Origin: Candidatus Latescibacterota bacterium
Lineage (GTDB): Bacteria > Latescibacterota > UBA2968
NCBI GenBank assembly: GCA_965207885.1
Contig: OZ242311.1
Location: forward strand, 256,001-320,000
Length of the DNA: 64,000 nt
Direction: 5' to 3'
The notes under the pieces were generated by a model. The model made no database searches. It had not been told where the DNA came from and worked only from the letters and a program-made list of their open reading frames with translations. The translations under genes and the position numbers were made by a program. Below are positions 7,968-24,943 of the stretch, piece by piece. Each line of letters begins with the position of its first letter. Within the stretch, counting starts at the first letter, position 1.

Positions 7968-9806
7968 GACAGGACGGCAAAAAGTCTTGAAAACAAGGGA
8001 GAAAGCCACCTGCAATCCCTTGTCGTGAGAGCTTCAAATCGTCTGTTCATACTCTCTGGTATAGGTTTGTACGGCCCAAGAACCCGTTGATGACATCGCA
8101 AGGCCTCAAAAGCCTACCAAAAAGTTTTTGAGGGTAAAATGACCCCCTATAGGCAGCGACACGATGGATATTGAGACCCAATGCGCGTAGCAATACCCGA
8201 TATTGAACTGCACCTTGCCCACGCACCCGTAGGTGAGCCAGTCCCATTTGATGCTTTAGACGCGATATGGTCCCTTCGATGCCTGCTCGCCAACGATATC
8301 GGTCACGGAAGGCGTCAGACTGTTCAGACAGACGCCGGGCACGCTGCTTGACGCGTTCGTGGGTATATTGGAGACGATCTTTTCCCTTGATCGGACAGCG
8401 CGCTTGCAAGGGACATTGGTCACACACATCTATAGCAAATCGAACCTGGAGGCGTTTCTTGCTCACAGACATCTCAAGGGGCGCGTGACCCGCTGGACAT
8501 CGCTGGATATACCCAGAGGCATTTAGGTCAAAGTCCTCCAATGTCAATTTGCCCTGACCTTTGCCCTTCGGGGACATCGCCAGAGCCAACAGGGTGACAC
8601 CTTTGGCTTTGGCATGAGCTATACATTTTGTCGAACCGTAGTGCGTATCGGCCACCATATGCTCAGGTGCCACACCACGCGCTTTTGTATCCTCTATGGC
8701 CGGTAAGAGGGCTTTACTGTCATGGACGGTCATCTTGCCCACAGCCATATGCGTGATCAGGTCTGGCTTGGCAACTTTAGACACTGCTGATGTGACTTCC
8801 TCTGTCTGATCGTCTTTGTCGGCATCCTCCGAGAAGGTCTCCATGACCTGTACGAGATAGCCTACCCCCCGACGCTTGTTATAGCTGGCGTCGGGATCGG
8901 CCGGATTAAGGATATTGTCACACGAGATCGCATTGGGATCCCGCATCTTTATGCTGTCTTGACCGGATGCCATACAGATGCGTTCGCACTGTTCTTTAAG
9001 AACACGTTCCAACACACGGTAGCTGTGCAACTGCGCCGCCTCAGTTGCACAAAACTGCCTCAGCAGTGCATCTATATCAGCGGCGGCTTCTGGCAATCGA
9101 CACTTTGACTGGCTCGGCGTGGTTAAGGCGAAACACCCATCGCCTGTTCGGGCAACATACTTGCGCCATAGTTCAGGATCCAGTTCCTGATACAACAAAG
9201 GGTAGGTTCGACGCAACTCGCGCAAGAATTTACTCATGGACTCGACCAGAATGCCCAAGCGCGTCAAGTTGCGCATAAAGCTGCGAACACCCGTCGAGTC
9301 GATCCGCTGCTTGCGGGTATTAACCCCAACCGAAGCAATGAGCTTGTCGGTCAGGCTTTGGAAGAGCACCTCATCCATATGATGCTGAATCACCAAACGA
9401 CGATAGGTGCGAAGCGTTCGCTCACAAAAATAACAGTCGGCTTCACTGCGCACATCAAGGGCATACTGCCAGGCCAGATTAAATGCAATGGCTTCCACTG
9501 TCTGAGCATCGGTCAAATCATGCAGTTGTTGCAATACCAGTGCCCCGAGCACAACGTGGAGGTCTTTACTGGGGCGTCCAAAGTCTTTGCTAAAATGGGG
9601 TGCCAGTTCCCCAACAGGCAGTTCCGAAAGCAGATACTCTCGGAAGACACCAGCCCAGGAACGATCAAGGAGTTGTTTGCGTTTGGCCCCAAGCTGTATC
9701 CAAAAATCTGGTGGGGCAGCCGAATCGCGGTCTCGTAAGGTAAGCATAAACGAAAGATAGCTCACCATACACTTCGTGACAATCTCTGACTTTTTGCCGT
9801 CCTGTC
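7968..9806 (-). mobile_element. Insertion sequence, IS1182-like (DDE)
   Basis: Perfect 19-bp TIRs GACAGGACGGCAAAAAGTC and a flanking direct repeat AACGGTT (7961-7967 and 9807-9813). Confidence 0.92.
8047..9768 (-). CDS. Transposase, IS1182/IS5-like
   Basis: GRPS, RIDST, ADTHYGS, a Cys cluster (CPAG...CDQCPLQARC) and YRWRAGIEGTISRLK. The true start may be the ATG at 9747. Confidence 0.9.
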   Translation of the reverse strand: MVSYLSFMLTLRDRDSAAPPDFWIQLGAKRKQLLDRSWAGVFREYLLSELPVGELAPHFSKDFGRPSKDLHVVLGALVLQQLHDLTDAQTVEAIAFNLAWQYALDVRSEADCYFCERTLRTYRRLVIQHHMDEVLFQSLTDKLIASVGVNTRKQRIDSTGVRSFMRNLTRLGILVESMSKFLRELRRTYPLLYQELDPELWRKYVARTGDGCFALTTPSQSKCRLPEAAADIDALLRQFCATEAAQLHSYRVLERVLKEQCERICMASGQDSIKMRDPNAISCDNILNPADPDASYNKRRGVGYLVQVMETFSEDADKDDQTEEVTSAVSKVAKPDLITHMAVGKMTVHDSKALLPAIEDTKARGVAPEHMVADTHYGSTKCIAHAKAKGVTLLALAMSPKGKGQGKLTLEDFDLNASGYIQRCPAGHAPLEMSVSKKRLQVRFAIDVCDQCPLQARCPIKGKDRLQYTHERVKQRARRLSEQSDAFRDRYRWRAGIEGTISRLKHQMGLAHLRVRGQGAVQYRVLLRALGLNIHRVAAYRGSFYPQKLFGRLLRPCDVINGFLGRTNLYQRV

Positions 9807-13115: not shown

Positions 13116-16007
13116 ATGGCCGAAATAGTTGACACTTTACTGGAAGCGGTTGATTTTGCGGTTCGCAAACGCGATGGTCGGGTCGTGGATTTTGACCGCG
13201 CGCGCATTGAACGCGCGATTGAGGCGGCATTTAGAGCCGAGTTGGGCTTGTCCAACGATCATTCATTGCCGCCCAAAATTGGAACCGACGTGTCGGAACT
13301 CACCGACGCTGTTATTTCTGAAATTGAAGGGGAACTGCATGAGCCGGATGACAGCGTAGATGTCGAACGCATTCAGGACAAAGTCGAAATCCAATTAATG
13401 CGTGCAGGCCACTTTGCGGTCGCGCGACGCTACATCGTCTATCGAGAAGACCACAAAAAAGCCCGCGTACTCAGCGGCAAAGAAGAACCCCAGGACCCCA
13501 ACGCGCCCAAACTGCGCGTACAAACAGCCGACGGCAAGCGCGAACCCCTCGACGCCAACCGCATTCGCACCGAAGTATTTGCCGTTTGCGATGACGAGGT
13601 AGATCCCCAGGCCCTGCTCGACGAGATATATCGCTCCCTCTACGACGACATCAAACCCGACGATATCGAACGCGCCATGATATTGGCAGCGCGCAGCCGC
13701 GTGGAAAAAGAACCCGCCTATAGCAAAGTCGCAATGCGGTTGCTCCTCAACGTGATCTATCGCCACGCCCTGGGATTCAAACCCGCGATAGAAGACAGGG
13801 ACACAGCCTGTCGGCAGGGATTTGCAAAATTTATTGAAACGGGCATTGAAAACGATCGTTTAGATCCCAAATTGCGCGTATTTGACCTGGAGCGTCTATC
13901 CGCGGCATTAAAACCCGAGCGCGATGAAGACTTTGAATACCTGGGCGTACAAACCATTTTTGACCGCTATTTGCTCCACGTCAACGAGCGCCGCATTGAA
14001 ACCCCGCAGTTCTTCTGGATGCGCGTGGCCATGGGCCTGTCCTGGGACGAAGAAGACAAAGAGGCGCGCGCCATTCAATTTTACGAAGTACTCTCTTCCT
14101 TCCGATTTGTCTCTGCCACACCCACCCTGTTCAACGCCGGCACCCTGCATCCGCAGTTGTCCTCGTGTTATCTATCAACTGCGCAAGATGACCTGGAACA
14201 CATATTCAAAATGGTATCCGACAATGCCAAATTATCCAAATGGGCGGGCGGTCTGGGCAATGACTGGACAAATGTGCGCGCCACAAATTCCTATATCCGC
14301 GGCACAAACGGCAAAAGCCAGGGCGTCATTCCATTTTTGAAAGTCGTGAACGACACAGCAGTTGCCGTCAACCAGGGCGGAAAACGCAAAGGGGCGGTAT
14401 GCTCCTATCTGGAAACCTGGCATCTGGACATCGAAGATTTTATGGAGTTGCGCAAAAACACGGGCGATGACCGCCGCCGCACACACGATATGAACACGGC
14501 CAACTGGATCCCCGACCTGTTTATGAAGCGCGTCATGGAAAAGGGATCCTGGACCCTGTTCAGCCCGGATGAAGTCCCCGACCTGCACGATCTGTACGGC
14601 AAAGCCTTTGAAGAGAAATACCTCGCCTATGAACAAAAGGCCGAAGCCGGTGAACTGCAACAATCTCGCCAGATCGACGCCGTGCAATTGTGGCGAAAAA
14701 TGTTGTCCATGCTCTTTGAAACCGGGCATCCGTGGATCACATTTAAAGACCCGTCCAACATCCGCTCTCCGCAGGATCACGCGGGCGTTGTCCACAGCTC
14801 GAACCTGTGTACTGAAATTTTGTTGAACACGAGCCGCGAAGAAACCGCGGTATGCAACCTCGGCTCCGTAAACCTCGTGGCGCACATCACACCCACGGGC
14901 CTCAACCGAGAATTGCTGGAAGACACGGTATCGACCGCGCTTCGAATGCTGGACAACGTGATAGACATCAATTTCTATCCCACAGAAGAAGCCGCCACAT
15001 CCAACAAACGCCACCGCCCCGTGGGCCTGGGCGTGATGGGATTTCAGGACGCGCTCTACCTGTTGAATTTGCCCTACGCTTCGCAAGGCGCAGTTGACTT
15101 TGCCGACATAAGCATGGAAATGATCTCGTATTACGCGATCCTCGCCTCAACGCACCTGGCCGAAGAACGCGGCACATACCATTCCTACATCGGTTCAAAA
15201 TGGGACCGCGGTATATTGCCCATCGATACCCTGACCGTGTTGGGACAGGAACGCGGGGCGTACCTCGAAGTCGATACATCCGCGCGACTGGAATGGAATG
15301 TGGTGCGCGAAGCAGTCGCCAAACACGGCATGCGAAACAGCAACGTGATGGCCATTGCCCCGACCGCCACCATATCGAACATCTCGGGCGTGACGCAATC
15401 CATCGAGCCGATGTATCGCAACCTGTATGTAAAAGCAAATCTATCCGGTGACTTTACCGTATTAAATCCCTACATGGTCGATGCCTTAAAAGCGCGCGAC
15501 CTGTGGGACGACCAGATGGTAGATGATCTGAAATACTACGACGGCTCAGTCCAGGAAATCGACCGCATCCCACAAGACATAAAAGACCTCTACAAAACCG
15601 CGTTTGAAGTGGCACCCGAATGGCTCATTGAATGCGCCAGCCGCCGGCAAAAGTGGATCGACATGGGCCAATCGCTAAATCTGTACATCGCAGCCCCCAG
15701 CGGCAAAGCACTGGACGACATGTACAAACTCGCCTGGGTGCGCGGGCTGAAAACCACGTACTACTTGCGCTCACTCGCTGCGACCCAGATCGAAAAATCC
15801 ACCATGGACATCAACAAACGCGGTGTCCAACCCCGGTGGATGCAGTCCAAATCCGCTTCGAGCGATGTGCAAGTACAACGCGAAGATGCTCCTGTTGAAA
15901 CAGACGCGTCTCTCAACGGGCAGGTACACCAACAGGCCCCTGCTACACCAGCACCAACGGCTGAGGCCTGCGATATTACAGACGGCTCCTGTGAGGCGTG
16001 TCAATAG
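13116..16007 (+). CDS. nrdA: Ribonucleoside-diphosphate reductase alpha subunit (class I, two ATP-cones)
   Basis: VRKRDG ATP-cone plus a second cone, ATPTLFN, LSSC, SNLCTEI, VCNLGS, APTATIS, KTTYY and C-terminal CEACQ. Confidence 0.97.
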
Positions 16008-16073
16008 ATCGATTCGTTCTGTCTTTTTGCGAGGGTATCTTCATGTAAAATAAAGAGCCTGTTTATAAATAAA

Positions 16074-16112
16074 TGAAGGTCGTGTCTTTTGGGGAAACAC
16101 GACCTTCAAAAA
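16074..16112. terminator. Hairpin, probable terminator after nrdA
   Basis: TGAAGGTCGTGT...ACACGACCTTCA 12-bp stem. Confidence 0.6.
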
Positions 16113-16264
16113 CCTAATATATGTACTGACTGCATCAGTTGGCTGAATTTATGAAAATTCTAATTTCCTGACAAGTGTAAAATCAAGCGGTTTGGTGTAA
16201 AAACAACAAGGTAGATAATTTTTTTCTCCTCTAAACACTAACAGTCGGAAGGAGGTGAATATAA

Positions 16265-16402
16265 ATGAGAATCAAGACAACAACAAGAAGGCCGATAATT
16301 CGGCGGGGACCAAGAGTTCCGGTGACCTTTAAGATCAAAACCACCGTGAAGTGTGGTAGTAGAACCACCACAAGAACCAGAAGGATTACGCGGCATATAT
16401 AG
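16265..16402 (+). CDS. 45-aa Arg/Lys/Thr-rich small protein (not in the ORF track)
   Basis: AAGGAGGTGA Shine-Dalgarno before the ATG; MRIKTTTRRPIIRRGPRVPVTFKIKTTVKCGSRTTTRTRRITRHI. Confidence 0.6.
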   Translation: MRIKTTTRRPIIRRGPRVPVTFKIKTTVKCGSRTTTRTRRITRHI

Positions 16403-16413
16403 CTCGATCCGGA

Positions 16414-16487
16414 AACAAAAAATAAAGCCCGCCGGAGCGGTCAACTCACGACGGGCGAAGTCACTATCCACCTTGCAGCAAGAGGAT
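16414..16487 (-). ncRNA. Putative convergent small RNA
   Basis: Minus-strand TTGACA (16516-16521)-16 bp-TAACTT, and a minus-strand GC hairpin (16427-16456) followed by a U-rich tract. Confidence 0.4.
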
Positions 16488-16668
16488 GGCTATAAGTTAA
16501 TACTAACCATCCTCTTGTCAAATCATTTTAGGGAGGGCTTAGTCATGTAGCAATTTACGTTTCAAATTCCGCCACCAAACAGTGACCTTGACATATGTAC
16601 CTGTTCCGGGGTAGGCGAGTATAATTTCCTCAATAGGTCCACCGACACCTCTTTCCAAGGAGGACACA

Positions 16669-16881
16669 ATGGTGTCACGTTTTGAAATCTACCAAGACAA
16701 TATAGGAGAATGGCGTTGGCGATTTAGAGCAGCAAACCACAAGATTATCGCCGTTTCCAGTGAAGGATATAGTAGCAAACAAGCGTGTCTTGACTCAATT
16801 GACTTGATCAAGACGACCGCTGGTAGTGCTCCCGTGTATGAATACGATAGTATTACATCAACATGGCGACGACGCCAGTAG
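16669..16881 (+). CDS. YegP/DUF1508 family protein (single domain)
   Basis: FEIYQD..GEWRWRFRAANHKIIA.SEGYSSKQAC..SI; AAGGAGG RBS. Confidence 0.9.
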   Translation: MVSRFEIYQDNIGEWRWRFRAANHKIIAVSSEGYSSKQACLDSIDLIKTTAGSAPVYEYDSITSTWRRRQ

Positions 16882-17042
16882 TGAGTGCCCATCGCGTGCT
16901 TGGGCAGATCGCGCTGGTGGGCACTGACATTTTTTATGCGAAACACACACCTATTCAAGTATCTCTGCAGGTGTTTTTTGATCAGGGATGATGTGGGTGA
17001 GATACTGGTCCAAGATACAGATATATTTTTCGGAGGATTCAA

Positions 17043-18194
17043 ATGTCTTCAAAAATCTCTTTTTTTCCCGTTGGCAATGGTGACATGACTCTGATTGAGA
17101 CAGAGTCCGGGCGAAAGATCCTGATTGATATGAATATTCGGGCAGCAGCAGATGATCCTGACGACGAAACCCCTGATGTTGCCAAGATGCTTAGAGAACG
17201 TCTCGGACGCGATTCTGAGGGTAGACTATATGTGGATGCCTTGCTGATCAGTCATCCCGACCAAGATCACTGCAATGGCCTTTCCAAACACTTTTATCTC
17301 GGTCCTCCTGACAAATGGTCCAAAACATCTGACAAGGTGTTTATTCGAGAGATATGGTCCTCGCCTATGGTGTTTCGACGTGCATCTCGGAACCATGTTC
17401 TTTGTGACGACGCTAAAGCTTTCAATACCGAAGCACGCCGACGTGTTCAGGAATTCCGTGATAACGGTAGTGAGGTTGACGACGGCGACCGCATCCGCAT
17501 CCTCGGTGAAGACGAGAACGGTAAGACTGACGATCTCGATGAAATCCTTGTTCGGGTGGATGAAACCTTCTCATCCATCAATGGCCAAGACGATTGGTCA
17601 ATGACAGCAAGGCTGCTCGGGCCACTCCCGAAGTCAGATGATGACGACGAAGATATTTTGTCGAAGAACAATTCCAGTACCATTCTTAAGTTCTCTTTAG
17701 CAGGTGGGGGAAGTTCCGATAAATGTCGATTTCTGACTGGCGGGGACGCTGAAGTTGCGATATGGGAAAAGCTCTGGCAACGTCACGATTGGCGGTCAGA
17801 ATGGTTATCCTACGACATCTTGCTGGTACCTCATCATTGCTCATGGCATAGCTTGTCTTACGACAGTTGGAGTGATTTAGGCGAAGATGCCGAGGTTTGC
17901 GAGGACGCACGCAATGCTCTTTCACAGGCCCGCACTGGCGCGATGTTTGTGGCGAGTAGCGACCCGATCAAGGATGATGACAACGATCCTCCCTGTATTC
18001 GAGCGAAACGCGAGTATGTGAGTATAGAGAACGATACCGATGCTTTTAAATGCACCGGCGAGTACCCTTCAGAGAAGTCACCTGACGTGCTTGAGTTTGA
18101 AATAGGTAGTGATGGACCACGCCTACTGACAGCACTTATGGTAGGAGGTACTGCTCCGGGAATCATAGGCCAGCAGCCACTGTCTCACGGTTGA
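17043..18194 (+). CDS. Metallo-beta-lactamase-fold hydrolase (ComEC-like) with a C-terminal Gly tail
   Basis: VGNGD, SHPDQDH, GGDAE and PHHCS motifs; ends ...GIIGQQPLSHG. Confidence 0.88.
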   Translation: MSSKISFFPVGNGDMTLIETESGRKILIDMNIRAAADDPDDETPDVAKMLRERLGRDSEGRLYVDALLISHPDQDHCNGLSKHFYLGPPDKWSKTSDKVFIREIWSSPMVFRRASRNHVLCDDAKAFNTEARRRVQEFRDNGSEVDDGDRIRILGEDENGKTDDLDEILVRVDETFSSINGQDDWSMTARLLGPLPKSDDDDEDILSKNNSSTILKFSLAGGGSSDKCRFLTGGDAEVAIWEKLWQRHDWRSEWLSYDILLVPHHCSWHSLSYDSWSDLGEDAEVCEDARNALSQARTGAMFVASSDPIKDDDNDPPCIRAKREYVSIENDTDAFKCTGEYPSEKSPDVLEFEIGSDGPRLLTALMVGGTAPGIIGQQPLSHG

Positions 18195-20482
18195 GGTTGA
18201 CAATGGTAGAAGTCAAAATCAGCAAAGCTATCAGGCGTGCATTGACTTTGATGGAGGGCCATCCGGCTATTTGTCATGTGGCAATTTCATCTTTTGATAA
18301 AGCCATGAGGACAACCAGCGTCAATGCGACGTTTGATGTTAGTTTGCCGAATGCGTGGAGGTCCTCCGGAGAAAGTCCTTCAGGTGTCAGGCTCAAAGAA
18401 GAGGTACGTTTCGATTTCCCTAACGACTTTCCTTTCAGCCCTCCACGTATATCATTACGCAGGGATTTCAATCGCAATCTGCCTCACATGCAGCCGTATT
18501 TGCTTTCCGGGCGACCGGTTCCCTGTATCTACGATGGTGATATTACCGAACTTCTTCACCAAGAAAGATTGGTCGGCATTCTCAATCAGGTCTCTGTTTG
18601 GCTTGATCGCGCTGCTACGCTTACCCTTATGGATCCAGAACAAGGGTGGGAACCCGTCCGTCGCGACACGTTTGAGTCATATATTGTCGCTGACGCCGAC
18701 AAATTCCGTGGATTGGTAAACCGCAGAGGTGGATACAAATTCTTTGAGTTTGAATATCTGAGGAATACCACTAATGGCTATAAAGGCTTTGTTCGCGGAC
18801 TAATTTCTCCCTCGGTACTCAAAGTAAACTATAATGCAGTACCCAAAATATATAAGGAGAAACCGTTAGATCCGCCTCTTCGTTACGGCAAATCACTGGC
18901 GTTGCTCGTCTGGCCGGGTAAGCTCCCGTCAGGTAAGTTGATTGTCGCGGACTCGTACCTTCCCGAAACTGTGAGTAATGTTGATAGCCTTAAGGAACGC
19001 GCTAAATCGTACGGTTGTCTCAAGGAACTTGACTCTGGTCTCAATTGGCTGAAGCGATGCCTATCGCGAGATGTAGAAGCCGGTCCACTCACCATAGCAA
19101 TTGTACTCATGGCACGTCGTCCGTTCAAGGTAATTGGAAGTCAAAGCTGTATTGAGTTATGTCCATATATTGTGGACATTTACACCCCTGATTTATTCTT
19201 GGAAGGTGGGGAAACAGCAGTGCGACCAGCCATACATCTCCAAACAGTAAGCCGTTCCCTCCTCGCTCAATTGTCAGGCGGTACAGCACAATCGGAACGA
19301 CCGTACTGGACACTTGTCGGTGCAGGTAGTCTGGGATCAAAGTTGGCCCTTCATCTTGCGCGAGCTGGATATGCACCTGAAATCGTTCTGGATAAGTCGC
19401 CAATGTTACCGCACAATGCGGCGCGGCATGCACTTATTCCTCCGACAGGCGGTCCGCAACTTCTTGGGATGGATGCCAAGGCCAGAAGGCTGTGTGATGC
19501 ACTGAGCGGATTGGATCAGAAAGCAACACCGATCATAGAAAATGTTGTCAGCATATTAAAATCCAAAACTAAGGTGCGACGTGTCTGTTCAAAGGATTCA
19601 TGGGCGATTGTAAACGCAACAGCCTCTTTGGCTGTCCGTCAAGCTTTTGCATTGACCGAATCGCTGACCACGCGGGTTATTGAGACTTCCTTATTTGCAG
19701 GTGGCATTGTCGGAATAATTACGACCGAGGGGCCAGACCGAAATCCAAACACCGCCGATCTGATAGCTGAATGCTACGGAATCCTGCGAGAAGATCCAGA
19801 CTTAGCGCATATCGTATTCAGAAGTGATGACGCGATGTCACGCCAAAGCATTGGTCAAGGTTGCGGCTCTCTGACGATGACTATGTCGGATGGACGCTTG
19901 TCACTATTTGCCGCTGGAATGTCTGAATACTTGCTGGCAAAGCAGCGCAATGGATTGCCCAGTGCCGGTGGTGAAATTCTTATAGGTCGGTTATCCGCAG
20001 ATGGGCTTGGTCTAGAATGGTGTGTTCACCAAATTTCGCCAGCGACAGTCGTGAATACAATAAACGGGGGAAAATGGCGCGTTCACATTCATCCGCGAGC
20101 AGTGGCGAAGATTGAGCAAGAAAGAATATGCCACCCGAAGGTCGAGACAGGTGGCGTACTTATGGGCCGAATTTCGGAGGCGTCCCAAATTATTAATGTT
20201 GTTGACGTTTTGGGTGCGCCAGAGGATAGCACACGATCGGCAACTGAATTTGTTCTTGGTACCAAAGGATTAAGTAGCCAGATGAGGACCTACTCAGAGT
20301 CAGTCGGTGGGTCGCTCTACTGTCTCGGCACTTGGCACAGCCATATTTCCGTAAGTGGCCCATCCTCGACAGACCGGGCAACCGCAAAGGCAATTGACCT
20401 ATCACGTCTTTGCCCATCGGTTCTCTTGATAAGCACTCCTGTAGGTTTTCAAGCACTTTTGGCTGACGAGGTAGGTAAATGA
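18191..20482 (+). CDS. Prokaryotic E2 - E1 (ThiF) - JAB fusion protein (Cap2/Cap3-like)
   Basis: E2: FPFSPP...LPH...PVPCIY. E1: VGAGSLGS, HNAARH, NATAS, GQGCGS. JAB: ETGGVLMG, GTWHSH...PSSTD. Start is TTG 18191 or ATG 18203. Confidence 0.9.
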   Translation: MRLTMVEVKISKAIRRALTLMEGHPAICHVAISSFDKAMRTTSVNATFDVSLPNAWRSSGESPSGVRLKEEVRFDFPNDFPFSPPRISLRRDFNRNLPHMQPYLLSGRPVPCIYDGDITELLHQERLVGILNQVSVWLDRAATLTLMDPEQGWEPVRRDTFESYIVADADKFRGLVNRRGGYKFFEFEYLRNTTNGYKGFVRGLISPSVLKVNYNAVPKIYKEKPLDPPLRYGKSLALLVWPGKLPSGKLIVADSYLPETVSNVDSLKERAKSYGCLKELDSGLNWLKRCLSRDVEAGPLTIAIVLMARRPFKVIGSQSCIELCPYIVDIYTPDLFLEGGETAVRPAIHLQTVSRSLLAQLSGGTAQSERPYWTLVGAGSLGSKLALHLARAGYAPEIVLDKSPMLPHNAARHALIPPTGGPQLLGMDAKARRLCDALSGLDQKATPIIENVVSILKSKTKVRRVCSKDSWAIVNATASLAVRQAFALTESLTTRVIETSLFAGGIVGIITTEGPDRNPNTADLIAECYGILREDPDLAHIVFRSDDAMSRQSIGQGCGSLTMTMSDGRLSLFAAGMSEYLLAKQRNGLPSAGGEILIGRLSADGLGLEWCVHQISPATVVNTINGGKWRVHIHPRAVAKIEQERICHPKVETGGVLMGRISEASQIINVVDVLGAPEDSTRSATEFVLGTKGLSSQMRTYSESVGGSLYCLGTWHSHISVSGPSSTDRATAKAIDLSRLCPSVLLISTPVGFQALLADEVGK

Positions 20483-21231
20483 ATAATATTAGTATGCTAA
20501 TTAGCGATCCGTATGACCGAAAAGCTCGGCTAAAACCTGCGCTTTTGGCTCTACTTCCCCTTATTTTTTTGTGTATATCTCTATTTCCTGAGATTCAATC
20601 AATATGGTCCACTGTGGGAGGAATAGTGGTATATTGCGGTAGCACAATGTTGCTCATTCAGTTTGGTCGTAACTGGGGGAAACTACTTGAACCATCACTT
20701 TTTCGAGCATGGGGTGGTAAACCTTCAGTAGCTATGCTGCGGCATTGCGACACGCGCCTCTCCCAAGATCAGAAAAATCGGTATCGAGCCTTCTTAGAGC
20801 GAAATGTTCCGAAGTTGAAGTTAGCATCCCCGGAGGAGGAAGAAAAAAGTCTTACTCAAGCCGATGATGGATATGAGAGTGCTACCGCTTGGTTATTGAC
20901 TCGGACAACAGATCACGAACGTTTTAAACTGATTTTTGAGGAGAATATCAATTACGGATTTCGTCGAAATATAAGAGGTCTTAAGCCCATAGCGATTATT
21001 TTGGATATTATCGTCATCACAATCTTCTTGATTTGGTACAGTTCGCTATGGACAGGCGAAATTCTTTCTACCCTGAATTCTATCGATATATACGGACAGA
21101 TCACTGGGATACTTGTCATTCTCCACTTGTTTTCTTTTTTATTTTTTATCACGCGAGACTGGATACGCCCATCGGCTGAGGCTTATGCTCGACAATTGCT
21201 TGCTGCATGCGACCATTTAGAACAGTCTTAA
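20479..21231 (+). CDS. 4-TM membrane protein, putative effector of the MBL/E2-E1-JAB operon
   Basis: Two N-terminal and two C-terminal hydrophobic segments flank a soluble region containing ENINYGFRRN. The start overlaps the upstream stop. Confidence 0.75.
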   Translation: MNNISMLISDPYDRKARLKPALLALLPLIFLCISLFPEIQSIWSTVGGIVVYCGSTMLLIQFGRNWGKLLEPSLFRAWGGKPSVAMLRHCDTRLSQDQKNRYRAFLERNVPKLKLASPEEEEKSLTQADDGYESATAWLLTRTTDHERFKLIFEENINYGFRRNIRGLKPIAIILDIIVITIFLIWYSSLWTGEILSTLNSIDIYGQITGILVILHLFSFLFFITRDWIRPSAEAYARQLLAACDHLEQS

Positions 21232-21324
21232 TCAAATCAGTAAACAGAATTGAAGCACGGTTTGGCGAAGGCCCAAACAAAGACACAACGACTATATAGC
21301 AAGTTGAAGAGGCTAATAGCGAAT

Positions 21325-21362
21325 AAGGGGAGCGGATTAAGTCCACTCCCTTTTTCTTTTTT
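21325..21362 (+). terminator. Rho-independent terminator closing the conjugation operon
   Basis: AGGGGAGCGGA-TTAAG-TCCACTCCCTT followed by a T-run. Confidence 0.7.
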
Positions 21363-21430
21363 AGCCCAGAGGATAATTATGTATTGTGCTGTACTTGATT
21401 ATTGGGTAATATAATCAGTAAATTTTTTTG

Positions 21431-21517
21431 TTGACTATCCGAAATTTATGACTGATAATAAGCAAGTTTTTACCACAACATTTTGTGCTCTTTTTTCGTT
21501 AATGACAAAATATTGTG
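21431..21517 (+). promoter_or_regulatory. Promoter with tandem NrdR-like boxes (presumed nrdB promoter)
   Basis: TTGACT-17 bp-GATAAT. CACAACATTTTGTG (21474-21487) and GACAAAATATTGTG (21504-21517) lie 30 bp apart. Confidence 0.68.
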
Positions 21518-21675
21518 TCATAAATAAAAGGTCTGCAATAATTTAAAGCGATTCCCCAATCGCTTTAAGACCATTTCCTCTCCCTTCCATTTCTCCCTCT
21601 GTCGTCTCCTTGCGACTCATCGCACTGGCGACCTTATTTTTTTAGATAGATTCGACGCAATCATCATTCGGCAAA

Positions 21676-21828
21676 ATGACCCGATTGCTCATCCATGTCG
21701 AGGGCGAAACCGAAGAAACTTTTGTAAACGAGATACTCGGACCGCATCTTTACGCCTGTGGCTATACGATGGTCAGTGCTCGTCTGGATAGACGATTCAC
21801 CTCGCACCGTACACTCCAAGCGTTATGA
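21676..21828 (+). pseudogene. N-terminal fragment of a second DUF4276-family gene
   Basis: MTRLLIHVEGETEETFVNEILGPHL...; 50 aa; the stop overlaps the next ATG. Confidence 0.65.
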
Positions 21829-23099
21829 ATTTATCTATCTCACAACCACGCCCTCCAGCACGTATCGAATACCTGAAGGTGCAGAACTTTCGTGCTTTGC
21901 GAGAGGTTGAATTCAAGGAATTGACACCGCTGACTGTGTTACTCGGTCCCAATGGCAGCGGCAAATCAACAGTATTTGACGTATTTGCGTTTCTATCTGA
22001 ATGCTTTGAGGTGGGTTTGCGCCGCGCCTGGGATCAGCGTGGACGCGCCAAAGAACTGCGGACGCGGGGCAACATCAATCCCGTTGTCATCGAACTCAAG
22101 TACCGCGAACGACCAGGCACACCTCTGATCACTTATCACTTGGCTATTGACGAAGACCGCAATCGTCCCGTTGTAATGGAGGAGTGGTTACAATGGCGGC
22201 GCGGACAACGTGGCAGACCATTCCGATTCCTCGATTATCGCGAGGGACAGGGCAGGGCGATCAGCGGTGAGCAACCAGACGACGAATTGGACATGCACAA
22301 CGAGGGAATGATCCAATTAGACCCGCGCAACGAAGTACCGCTCCAATCGCCCGATCTGCTGGCAGTCAATGCCTTGGGACAACTTGCCGCTCACCCGCAC
22401 GTAGCAGCACTGCGCGACTTCATTACCGGATGGCATGTGTCATACCTATCGGCAAACAGCGCACGGGGTCAGCCTGAAGCAGGACCGCAGGAGCGACTGT
22501 CAAGAAGCGGCGACAATCTTGCCAATGTTATACAGCACCTCGCAGAGCAACATCCCGACCGGCTTAACCAGATCTTTGAGGTGCTACGCCAGCGCGTGCC
22601 GCGTATTGAGCGCGTGCTATCAGATATCATGCCCGATGGCCGTCTATTGTTGCAGATCAAGGACGCGCCATTCAGCAACCCGGTGTTGGCGCGATTCGCT
22701 TCTGATGGCACATTGAAAATATTGGCTTATCTGGTACTGTTATACGACCCCGAACCACCACCCTTCATCGGCATTGAAGAACCGGAAAACTTCTTGCACC
22801 CTCGATTGCTTTCGGAACTTGCCGAAGAATGCCGTGCGGCCTGCGAACGCACACAGTTATTGGCGACCACGCATTCGCCGTTTTTCCTGAACGCACTGCG
22901 CCCCGAAGAGGTACGCGTTCTCTGGCGCGACGAGCAAGGGTACACACAAACAAGCCGCGTCGCAGATATACCTGGCATACCGGAATTTGTCGAAGAGGGT
23001 GCATATCTCGGCCATCTATGGATGGAAGGATATTTCAACCTAGGAGACCCGCTGGACAGACATGGTGAACCGACTTCTCCTCTGGGGGGACGCGGGTAA
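21825..23099 (+). CDS. AAA/ABC-type ATPase (AAA_21 / AbiEii-like)
   Basis: Walker A GPNGSGKS, signature SDGT, Walker B IEEPEN and H-loop TTHSP. Confidence 0.92.
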
Positions 23100-23716
23100 T
23101 GACGGCACAACATCTGGAATTACTCGTCGAAGAACCCTCAATGGAGGCCTTCTTGCGAGAGTTGTTGCCGCGTATGCTGTCCGCGGAATGCACATTCAAA
23201 ATTCATCCGTTTCAGGGGAAGCCAGACCTATTGGACAAGTTGCAAAATCGTCTGCAAGCCTATGCAAAATGGTTACCCAACAACTATCGCATCTTCGTAG
23301 TCGTTGACTGCGATAACGACGACTGCGAACAATTAAAACAAAAACTGGAAAACATTGCTTCTCGGACTCAGTTGCTCACCCGCTCACAGGCCCGTGGTCG
23401 CCCATGGCAACTGGTCAACCGCATTGCCATTGAAGAACTGGAGGCATGGTACTTCGGCGACTGGCAGGCGGTGTGTAATGCTTATCCGAGGGTTTCAAAA
23501 AAAATTCCCAATCAAGCACGCTATCGCCACCCCGATGCAATCCGCGGAGGCACCTGGGAAGCTTTCGAACGCATCTTGAAGCGACATGGCTACTTTAAAA
23601 CTGGACTACGCAAGACGGAGGCTGCCAGAGATGTTGGTATTCATATCGATTCTAATCGTAGCCGTTCGCACAGTTTCGTGAAATTTCGCGAAGCCATTAT
23701 TGAGGCAACTGCTTGA
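23099..23716 (+). CDS. DUF4276 family protein (TOPRIM-like partner of the ATPase)
   Basis: LLVEEPS, VVVDCDND, EELEAWYFGD and C-terminal SHSF; translationally coupled to the ATPase. Confidence 0.85.
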   Translation: MTAQHLELLVEEPSMEAFLRELLPRMLSAECTFKIHPFQGKPDLLDKLQNRLQAYAKWLPNNYRIFVVVDCDNDDCEQLKQKLENIASRTQLLTRSQARGRPWQLVNRIAIEELEAWYFGDWQAVCNAYPRVSKKIPNQARYRHPDAIRGGTWEAFERILKRHGYFKTGLRKTEAARDVGIHIDSNRSRSHSFVKFREAIIEATA

Positions 23717-23755: not shown

Positions 23756-24943
23756 ATGGCTAAGCTCATATTTGAAGACGAAGATGTTGAAAGTCATGCA
23801 AATATGGACTACCAAAACGGTGGTCACGCGCAGCAAAACGGTATTCATGCACCCGTTGAAGCGGATAACACTGACGTGCCATCCGCGCTGTGTTGTGGTG
23901 CCACTGGCGAAGCGTATGACCTGACCAAGCGCATCAACCCGGAAGACAAGCGATTGCTCAACTGCCGGCAGGTAGATGTGAACCAGTTGATGCCTCTCAA
24001 ATACGAATGGGCATGGGAGCACTATCTCAACGGATGTGCCAATCACTGGATGCCGACAGAAGTGCCCATGCAGCGCGACATAGAACTCTGGCGTTCAAAT
24101 GCACTGAACGACGCCGAGCGAAAAGTCATCTTGCGAAACCTCGGATTCTTCAGCACGGGCGAAAGCCTCGTCGGCAACAACATCGTACTCGCCATCTTCA
24201 AACACATCACAAACTCCGAAGCCCGGCAATACCTCTTGCGCCAGGCATTTGAAGAAGCCATACACACGCACACATTCCACTACATCGTCGAATCCCTGGG
24301 GCTAAACGCGCGCGAAGTATTCAACATGTATCACGAAGTCGCCTCCATTGAAGGCAAAGACAAATTCGTGATGGAACTAACCGAAGATGTACTGGACCCC
24401 AATTTTACAACACAAAGCATTGAAGGCATACAGAAATTCGTGAAAAATCTCATCGGCTTTTACGTCATCATGGAAGGCATCTTCTTTTACAGCGGCTTTG
24501 TAATGATCCTCTCCTTCCATCGGCAAAACCGCATGACCGGCATCGGCGAACAATTCCAGTACATCCTGCGCGACGAAACCATACATCTGAATTTTGGCAT
24601 CGACCTGATCAACACCATAAAACTCGAAAATCCAGAAATATGGACAACGGAACTGCAGCGCGACATCTACGACCTCATCCACGAAGCCGTGGAATACGAA
24701 GTCATCTATTCACGGGATTGTGTGCCCGACGGCGTACTGGGCCTCAATGAAGACTTATTCCGCGAATACGTGCAATTCATCGCCGACCGCCGATTGGAAC
24801 GAATCGGCCTACAAAGCGTATATGGATCGAAAAATCCATTCCCGTGGATGGGAGAAACCATTGACATCGCAAAAGAAAAGAACTTCTTTGAAACGCGCGT
24901 CACGGATTATCAAAGCGCGGGATCCTTACAGTGGGATGATTAA
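23756..24943 (+). CDS. nrdB: Ribonucleotide reductase beta subunit, class Ic (Mn/Fe R2c type)
   Basis: [12 protein letters not shown] (Glu ligand), EEAIHTHTF (Phe at the radical Tyr position), [15 protein letters not shown] and NFFETRV. Confidence 0.95.

Follow-up and report, generated by a model that had tools for sequence, protein, structure and literature searches.

The stretch of DNA analyzed here (the window, 64,000 nucleotides from a Candidatus Latescibacterota bacterium, contig OZ242311.1, positions 256,001 to 320,000) carries on its forward strand a compact operon of three genes that encode, in order, a metallo-β-lactamase (MBL)-fold hydrolase, a single polypeptide combining ubiquitin-like conjugation (E2), activation (E1) and deconjugation (JAB) modules, and a membrane protein with four predicted transmembrane (TM) segments. 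The MBL gene (window positions 17043–18194), a member of the 6A-MBL family, specifies 383 amino acids, of which approximately residues 1–362 form the folded domain. Its last codons (18129–18191; residues 363–383) encode a disordered C-terminal tail that ends ...QPLSHG, and whose final residue, Gly383, is where adenylation and conjugation are proposed to take place. The second gene (18203–20482; 759 amino acids when read from its ATG codon) encodes a Cap2-Cap3 fusion with three modules: an E2-like domain with Cys108 in a PVPC motif and His95 (18305–18709; Pfam Prok-E2_A, E = 9.2e-24), an E1 adenylation domain with a GAGSLGS nucleotide loop and the crossover-loop residue Cys554 in a GQGC motif (19250–19990; recognized by PADLOC and PDB profiles), and a JAB/JAMM metallopeptidase domain with E648, H712, H714, S721 and D724 (20060–20446; Pfam Prok-JAB and PADLOC JAB). 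The third gene (20479–21231; 250 amino acids), delimited by an ATGA overlap and by hydropathy, belongs to no named family. All three plus-strand reading frames lie where the original prediction for this locus, made from the DNA letters, had placed them, and the motifs it quoted can be read in the translations.

The second reading frame can also be opened at a TTG codon (18191–20482; 763 amino acids), and a four-nucleotide overlap between the MBL and E2-E1-JAB genes exists because this TTG start is assumed. We consider the ATG at 18203 to be the more likely start, as it has a GAGG sequence 7 nucleotides upstream and leaves a gap of 8 nucleotides after the MBL gene. Residue numbers for this protein are counted from the ATG throughout, and Cys108 is therefore equivalent to Cys112 in TTG numbering. 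The description of three overlapping genes thus holds for the second and third genes, which are joined by the ATGA overlap, but not for the first and second if translation begins at the ATG. Likewise, the operon had been described as more AT-rich than its flanks. Its guanine-cytosine (GC) content is indeed lower (0.47–0.51 over positions 17000–20500, and 0.38–0.44 over 20500–21500, which covers the TM protein gene and the spacer behind it) than that of the flanking nrdA gene (0.53–0.56) and HEC-01 gene (0.54–0.58), but the AT-richness is modest. Scans of positions 16000–22000 revealed no convincing promoter before the MBL gene and no terminator after the TM protein gene, and the counts of both types of element were near the expectation from shuffled sequence. 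Expression is weakly suggested by contigs assembled from RNA libraries (three runs from two studies), which reach portions of each of the three genes at a depth of 2–9 and in which DNA carry-over is possible.

Both enzymes were readily assigned to an established antiphage system. The MBL protein matches NCBIfam model NF058524 over residues 7–358 with 444.7 bits (cut-off 220; E = 2.2e-133), and the E2-E1-JAB protein matches NF058523 with 576.2 bits (cut-off 320; E = 9.9e-173). These models are curated equivalogs named ‘anti-phage 6A-MBL system MBL-fold protein’ and ‘6A-MBL system cap2_3 protein’, respectively. Within the single E2-E1-JAB chain, the order of domains is E2, E1 and JAB, with Pfam Prok-E2_A matching the N-terminal part, the PADLOC E1-E2 models the middle and Prok-JAB the C-terminal part. 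To place the operon among its relatives, we assembled the best 80 of 439 MBL relatives, with one genome scanned per species and with 56–92% identity to the MBL protein of the window. These loci span Proteobacteria, Cyanobacteria, Acidobacteriota, Spirochaetia, Nitrospinota, Chlamydiales, Dehalococcoidia, Fibrobacteria and other groups, and in 79 of the 80 the MBL gene is followed by the E2-E1-JAB gene, as it is in the window, where the two genes are adjacent and co-oriented. Because both enzymes score far above their family cut-offs and because this gene order recurs so consistently, we conclude that the operon is not a chance assembly.

The operon type corresponds to row 6a of Table 1 in the survey of Iyer, Burroughs and Aravind (2006; PMC1779556), which describes type 6a as ‘usually two genes’. 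More recently, other texts list 6A-MBL among the ‘known jumbo phage defense systems’ (bioRxiv 10.1101/2025.09.30.679545) and, in a 2026 review, credit van den Berg et al. (2024) with its experimental confirmation (PMC13276650). The statement in the original prediction that MBL-type ubiquitin-like operons have been catalogued under the name 6A-MBL is therefore accurate. With the MBL family, the E2-E1-JAB chain, the adjacency of the two genes and four intact active sites all present, and given the NCBIfam matches, the 2006 operon type and the later texts that cite it, it is nearly certain from sequence that the locus is a 6A-MBL system and so joins a known, validated family. Protection against phage is predicted for this particular copy from the texts that cite the family. 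The window shares the two defining genes with the 6A-MBL system of NCBIfam and of the 2006 account, and adds the membrane protein as a third gene that lies beyond the two NCBIfam models. Our search of the literature on 6A-MBL, which did not extend to the 2024 validation paper and its supplements, returned no mechanistic or structural study, and a search of the PDB returned no member of the family.

The catalytic residues quoted in the original prediction for the second protein (PVPC in E2, GAGSLG and GQGC in E1, and the E...HSH...S..D pattern in JAB) are intact and are conserved without exception in an alignment of 44 E2-E1-JAB proteins that are 31–87% identical to that of the window. Specifically, the invariant positions are H95, P107 and C108 in E2; G373, G375, S376, G378, S379, R387, D397, R408, K426, C554 and D563 in E1; and E648, H712, H714, S721 and D724 in JAB. 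The JAB domain is recognized by both Pfam Prok-JAB (E = 1.1e-6) and PADLOC JAB (E = 5.4e-17), and the E1 region by PADLOC models for the E1-E2 protein of the cyclic-oligonucleotide-based antiphage signaling system (CBASS) with values as low as E = 3.1e-13. A profile search of the PDB identified as closest chains Cap2 (7tsq and 7to3, E of approximately 4e-11, over the E1 domain alone) and a JAB peptidase, whereas the NCBIfam Cap3 model gives the protein 18.3 bits against a cut-off of 200.

The MBL protein likewise retains a complete active site. Its three motifs, HPDQDH (residues 71–76), GGDAE (233–237) and PHH (263–265), contribute residues H71, D75, H76, D235, H264 and H265, all of which are invariant among 73 aligned MBL proteins with 27–69% identity, and D73, which is nearly so. 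An AlphaFold2 (AF2) model of the protein, with a mean predicted local confidence (pLDDT) of 93.7, adopts the alpha-beta/beta-alpha sandwich of MBL enzymes. Among solved structures, its nearest relative is the beta-lactamase-like domain of ComEC (9ic4), which is the best match by structure (Foldseek E = 5.2e-13) and by sequence profile (E = 5.2e-13), and it is followed in order by pneumococcal phosphorylcholine esterase and then by nucleases of the RNase J/CPSF type. Because these are its best solved relatives, we conclude that the MBL protein is a phosphodiesterase and probably a nuclease, for which a nucleic acid would be the substrate. Two observations weigh against the latter step: the ComEC match has a query-normalized TM-score of 0.53 and 15% identity, and the second-best fold matches are phosphorylcholine esterases rather than nucleases. 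The beta-lactamase-like nuclease domain of ComEC is likewise an MBL enzyme; it acts at the membrane and degrades one strand of incoming DNA. In ComEC, however, it forms part of one polypeptide with a large channel protein, whereas the TM protein of the window has no match to the Pfam competence domain.

The central idea of the original prediction concerns the C-terminus of the MBL protein. The tail, ...GGTAPGIIGQQPLSHG, ends at G383, and residues 363–383 are disordered in the AF2 model, wherein the last three blocks of ten residues have pLDDT values of 69, 54 and 48. In type II CBASS, the substrates of Cap2 carry a comparable signature, namely a disordered tail with a terminal glycine or alanine that is conserved only in the company of Cap2 and Cap3, and the tail of the Enterobacter cloacae CD-NTase (cGAS/DncV-like nucleotidyltransferase) ends in an aromatic residue and alanine (PMC10097602 and bioRxiv 10.1101/2022.03.31.486616). 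This last ending resembles that of a 6A-MBL subgroup whose tails end ...YA. The MBL protein differs from classical ubiquitin-like modifiers in having an MBL fold instead of a beta-grasp fold, and is similar to them in its flexible, glycine-ended tail and in the additional residues, read as those of a precursor, seen in some of its relatives.

Conservation of the terminal glycine had been named beforehand as the observation on which the proposed role of Gly383 should stand or fall, and we therefore quantified it in several sets of sequences. First, at least 90% of the 73 aligned MBL proteins retain G383. Second, among the closest homologues (the 120 best of 3125), 114 end in glycine and 2 in alanine, almost all of them with the sequence ...GRQPLxHG, while 5 carry two to four residues beyond ...HG and one is truncated. 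Third, in a more diverse set, comprising the 84 full-length proteins (340–460 amino acids) among the 150 best of 759 representatives clustered at 50% identity, the terminal residue is glycine in 45 and alanine in 16, for a total of 61 of 84. Fifty-two of the 84 end in [HYF][GA] (HG, YG or YA), and another 17 have [HYF][GA] followed by an extension of one to eight residues. These short extensions after the glycine are read as precursors that would be trimmed by the JAB peptidase. A natural control is provided by short MBL proteins whose checked examples are encoded without the E2-E1-JAB gene: of 120 proteins homologous to the short MBL of Bacillus type, only 1 ends in glycine or alanine and none ends in [HYF][GA], and none of six readable short MBL proteins from loci verified to lack E2-E1-JAB ends in glycine or alanine. 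The terminal residue thus held up in the comparison (116 of 120 close and 61 of 84 diverse sequences, against 1 of 120 short MBL proteins). This quantified C-terminal signature with its natural control is absent from the texts we searched and may be new.

Taken together, these homologies and the tail signature make it likely that the MBL protein is the substrate of the E1 and E2 modules through Gly383. The idea that the enzyme is itself the conjugated modifier, as originally proposed, thereby gains strong comparative support, and the conjugate itself would be its predicted product. The same assumption about the MBL substrate has already appeared in print (PMC11601596), and both the locus type and the MBL-conjugation hypothesis are thus already known. 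Several observations weigh against this interpretation. In the diverse set, 9 of 84 proteins end in glycine or alanine without a preceding aromatic residue or histidine, and 6 of 84 carry no form of the motif, although some of these appear to be frameshifted or fused. Genomic context is confirmed for 2 members of the control subfamily of 120 sequences, and the argument for conjugation is made from homology and from the C-terminal signature. Complex prediction with E2-E1 residues 30–612, ATP and the full MBL protein (with alignments, as monomers), run without controls, gave an ipSAE interface score of 0.00 in both runs and speaks neither for nor against the interpretation.

It is also conceivable that E1 activates the MBL tail as proposed, but that the product, instead of being a conjugate to outside targets, is a covalent or tethered internal complex (MBL with E2-E1-JAB, or MBL with the TM protein) or a modified C-terminus that serves as an on/off switch. 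Consistent with this possibility, Cap2 forms cGAS-Cap2 conjugates in vitro (bioRxiv 10.1101/2022.03.31.486616), the writer and the eraser reside here in one chain, and distant E1 relatives such as MccB, which is a PDB match to the protein at E = 3.5e-5, modify the C-terminus of a peptide without subsequent transfer. However, the invariance of the E1 and E2 cysteines in 44 sequences favors a full transfer cascade, and the TM protein offers no loop lysine that is specific to three-gene systems. We therefore regard an internal switch as unlikely.

Slightly less probable still, in our judgment, is that the substrate of the E2-E1-JAB protein is a different one, for instance an unlinked ubiquitin-like protein or a protein of the host or of a phage, while the MBL enzyme acts only as a downstream effector whose tail serves, for example, in docking. 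No conjugate has been observed, the MBL protein is not a beta-grasp protein, and E2-E1 and JAB modules could in principle act on a substrate encoded elsewhere. Yet no cyclase or beta-grasp gene is present in the operon, in agreement with the original prediction and according to scans with Pfam, PADLOC and NCBIfam models, and across the 80 related loci only the MBL, E2-E1-JAB and TM genes recur, with no beta-grasp gene or other small conserved gene among them. The only small gene nearby, which encodes a 70-amino-acid DUF1508 (YegP-like) protein just upstream of the MBL gene (16669–16881), was considered as a hidden modifier and rejected; none of the 80 related 6A-MBL loci contains a relative of it, and for this reason it probably lies outside the system. 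Furthermore, the presence of a terminal glycine or alanine tracks that of E2-E1-JAB (116/120 and 61/84 versus 1/120), the residues that follow the glycine in 17 of 84 proteins resemble JAB-trimmed precursors, and the homologous Cap2 uses the enzyme of its own operon as substrate. For these reasons we favor the MBL protein as the conjugated species.

The third gene product was predicted to span the membrane four times, and hydrophobic segments are indeed found at approximately residues 18–40, 42–60, 165–195 and 203–229, arranged as two pairs around a soluble stretch of approximately 100 amino acids between TM2 and TM3. By the positive-inside rule, this soluble domain should face the cytoplasm. 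It is strongly conserved: among 36 aligned sequences, R101, E121, Y132, W138, Y159, R162, R163 and N164 are invariant, and a ...NYGFRRN motif is located just before TM3. We detected 357 homologues, and yet the protein has no family match in Pfam, PADLOC or NCBIfam. Its AF2 model (pLDDT 91.3) is all-helical; Foldseek found no match in the PDB at E ≤ 0.001, the highest Z in a VIA-align comparison with 48,161 chains was 6.4, for generic helical bundles and G-protein-coupled receptors with nothing informative among them, and the ESM Atlas returned unnamed clusters alone.

Despite its anonymity, a membrane protein is a nearly constant member of these operons. Nineteen of the 80 loci were left out of this comparison: in 14 the E2-E1-JAB match stops early, in 4 the downstream sequence is short, and in 1 there is no match. 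In 51 of the 61 assessable loci, an open reading frame (ORF) with multiple TM segments lies directly downstream of the E2-E1-JAB gene, and this ORF is a homologue of the TM protein of the window in 28 loci and another same-strand ORF with at least two hydrophobic segments in 23. The same criterion is satisfied by only 13 of 177 flanking ORFs of 150–300 amino acids. The partner also diversifies: identity across loci falls from 56–92% for the MBL protein to 32–87% for the E2-E1-JAB protein and to 30–96% for the TM protein, where the latter has not been replaced outright. One alternative family of third-gene products, with lengths of 228–238 amino acids, is a remote homologue of the TM protein of the window (hhalign probability 95.5%, E = 1.3e-8, 208 columns). 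A family of 170–180 amino acids gave a probability below 1% when compared with the TM family of the window and a weak match (14%) to the 228–238-amino-acid family.

On the basis of this co-occurrence, and of the two-gene modules described below, we consider it very likely that the membrane protein and the MBL enzyme work as functional partners, and the evidence supports the part of the original prediction that cast it as effector or partner. Two observations weigh against so general a conclusion. In 10 of the 61 loci, the position directly downstream holds an ORF with no more than one hydrophobic segment (5 loci) or no ORF at all (5 loci), but 4 of these 10 carry a TM homologue one gene further on or divergently upstream. 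In addition, a family of 211 amino acids, frequent among cyanobacteria, shares the 2+2 topology and has no detectable homology to the TM protein of the window (probability below 1%). The other role that had been suggested for the TM protein, that of acceptor for conjugation, did not survive comparison. Lysine K99 of the loop, the one that is nearly invariant, is retained just as well in two-gene relatives lacking a conjugation enzyme, K68 is retained there too, and because no loop lysine is specific to three-gene systems, the acceptor role is left without support.

Several individual loci depart from the common arrangement. In two (L010 and L011), an additional ORF for a non-membrane protein of 353 or 278 amino acids lies between the E2-E1-JAB gene and the TM homologue. 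In an Acinetobacter plasmid (L084, positions 8492–9562), the E2-E1-JAB gene is followed by a gene for a 356-amino-acid protein that is weakly MBL-like (E = 2e-11 with the MBL-family profile). Acinetobacter plasmids carry the TM homologue divergently upstream of the MBL gene, on the minus strand and in two reading frames, and this copy may be frameshifted. Finally, in two Frateuria loci (L072 and L073) and in L065, the MBL protein is approximately 60% identical to that of the window, but only to residue 360; its E1-JAB neighbor is approximately 26% identical, over residues 357–724 only, and a TM homologue lies further downstream or upstream. These three loci represent a diverged subtype, possibly the group of MBL proteins with ...YA tails.

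The same TM family also exists apart from the conjugation machinery. In seven plasmid loci, its members adjoin a gene for a short MBL protein (291–366 amino acids), and no E2-E1-JAB gene is present within 4.5–6 kb; a six-frame search with the E2-E1-JAB profile was negative for all seven of these loci and positive for all four three-gene loci searched in the same manner. The short MBL proteins match the PADLOC defense candidate PDC-M48B (E = 5.5e-150 and 3.5e-57), whereas the MBL protein of the window matches this model weakly (E = 1.3e-5 to 1.1e-4). The two-gene modules reside near restriction-modification, abortive infection (Abi) and toxin-antitoxin genes, and PDC-M48 is not mentioned in the literature we searched. 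They resemble the operon described here in having a distantly homologous MBL protein (E = 1e-16 to 1e-19 with the profile of the window family) and a membrane protein of the same four-TM family with 28–30% identity to that of the window. They differ in the absence of E2-E1-JAB and in an MBL protein that has no tail and that, in the Bacillus-type subfamily, ends ...Y[ILV]G[ST]L.L.

This distribution recalls that of CBASS. Type II CBASS (type 6b in the operon classification) consists of a CD-NTase, an effector, Cap2 and Cap3, and the E2-E1 and JAB modules of the window are homologous to Cap2 and Cap3, respectively, although the protein matches CBASS models over parts of its length only and with modest E-values. 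In both systems, an enzyme of the operon carries a disordered tail ending in glycine or alanine only when the conjugation enzymes are present, the membrane partner varies by locus, and a simpler form without the conjugation module exists. The differences are equally clear: neither the proteins of the window operon nor their neighbors include a CD-NTase or a cyclic-nucleotide effector domain, as judged with Pfam, PADLOC and NCBIfam, the presumed substrate here is an MBL hydrolase, and Cap2 and Cap3 are fused in one chain. We read the MBL enzyme and the TM protein as the core pair, and E2-E1-JAB as a regulatory addition to it, in parallel with the relationship between type I and type II CBASS.

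The operon is located between nrdA (13116–16007) and nrdB (23756–24943), which encode the class I ribonucleotide reductase and are held apart by approximately 7.7 kb of cargo. An MBL protein above the family cut-off is found in 4 of 21 genomes of the same genus, counting its own, and in one genome of another family. In two of the congeners (G004 and G007) the operon occupies the same nrdA-nrdB site, whereas nrdA and nrdB are separated by 30 nucleotides in G002 and by approximately 470 in G010, and in four congeners HEC-01 alone fills the gap. Because occupancy among congeners is patchy, with an empty site of 30 nucleotides in G002 and sites that hold HEC-01 only, we conclude that the nrdA-nrdB site is a variable defense hotspot, which behaves like a site of integration, and that the operon is mobile cargo. 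Relatives are likewise carried by 278 plasmid records, including 126 from Klebsiella, 31 from Clostridium, 25 from Escherichia and 18 from Acinetobacter. One of the four genomes carries only the first 164 of 346 MBL profile positions in a 195-amino-acid frame (G012:C91:16008-16511), approximately 2.7 kb before nrdB and with HEC-01 between them. There the operon seems to have decayed, leaving this truncated remnant at the same site.

In the window, the HEC-01 pair, a candidate defense system, lies directly downstream of the operon (21825–23716). Its two genes overlap by one base and encode an AAA_21/AAA_15 ATPase (PADLOC HEC-01A, E = 1.4e-162) and a DUF4276 protein (HEC-01B, E = 4e-86). A spacer of 600 nucleotides (21231–21825; GC content of approximately 0.38–0.45) separates the TM protein gene from HEC-01A, and within it lies the highest-scoring sigma-70-like sequence of the region scanned (21431–21459; 10 of 12 positions), which may be the HEC-01 promoter. 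The RNA-library contigs cover HEC-01 as one piece (21473–23667) at a depth of 17–30. Several sponge and marine metagenome runs contain the stretch.

That the operon is instead a housekeeping or DNA-uptake module, as the ComEC nuclease domain as nearest solved relative and the presence of a membrane partner might suggest, is very improbable given its patchy spread (4 of 21 congeners, with the empty site in G002), its relatives on 278 plasmid records, its HEC-01, restriction-modification, Abi and toxin-antitoxin neighbors, its designation as an antiphage system by NCBIfam and in the literature, and the presence elsewhere in the genome of a reading frame of approximately 806 amino acids that gives a weak ComEC-type match of its own.

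As the best explanation of the whole, which we hold to be probable on balance, we propose an intact 6A-MBL cargo operon with conjugation at Gly383 and a core formed by the MBL and TM proteins. In this model, the MBL protein, whose active site is intact, would be an active binuclear-metal phosphodiesterase of a ComEC-like clade, presumably with a nucleic acid as its substrate. To this enzyme has been added a disordered tail of 21 residues that ends in His-Gly. By analogy with the action of Cap2 on CD-NTases, the E1 domain would adenylate Gly383 and pass it as a thioester to Cys554 and then to Cys108 of E2, from which the MBL enzyme would finally be joined to an amine of one or several targets. 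The fused JAB domain would remove such conjugates, and in relatives whose precursors are extended by one to eight residues it would trim these first. We speculate that conjugation primes or localizes the MBL enzyme, rather than marking its target for destruction. The four-TM protein, whose gene is linked to that of the MBL protein, may serve its partner as effector, membrane anchor or sensor.

A bolder scenario, which we consider possible but doubtful, is that an MBL protein and a four-TM protein formed an ancestral two-gene defense core (a ‘type I’ form similar to PDC-M48), and that 6A-MBL is a ‘type II’ derivative that acquired a portable Cap2-Cap3 cassette together with a glycine-ended tail. 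The cassette would then be a general priming device that was recruited independently to CD-NTases, to the Pycsar cyclase and to MBL enzymes. In its boldest form, conjugation would tether the MBL enzyme to the membrane: the E2-E1 module, which is similar to ATG7/ATG3, would attach the ComEC-like MBL protein either to its TM partner or, in the manner of ATG8 lipidation, to the amine of a lipid. If this were true, an MBL enzyme held at the membrane, where phage DNA enters, would account for the activity against jumbo phages whose DNA is shielded in the cytoplasm.

In itself the locus is unremarkable, being a further copy of a catalogued and validated defense system, and its value lies in the testable comparison that its family permits. 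Neither the NCBIfam and PADLOC models nor the texts searched include the membrane partner, nearly constant yet diversifying, or the two-gene relatives, and both may be new; since the membrane protein is missing from these models, annotation pipelines overlook a probable component of the system. The glycine/alanine signature, set against the control of tail-less MBL proteins whose checked examples lack E2-E1-JAB, predicts a second family, in addition to CBASS, in which a non-ubiquitin enzyme is what becomes conjugated. Finally, the natural existence of two-gene and three-gene forms offers a simple genetic route to learning what ubiquitin-like priming adds to an immune enzyme.

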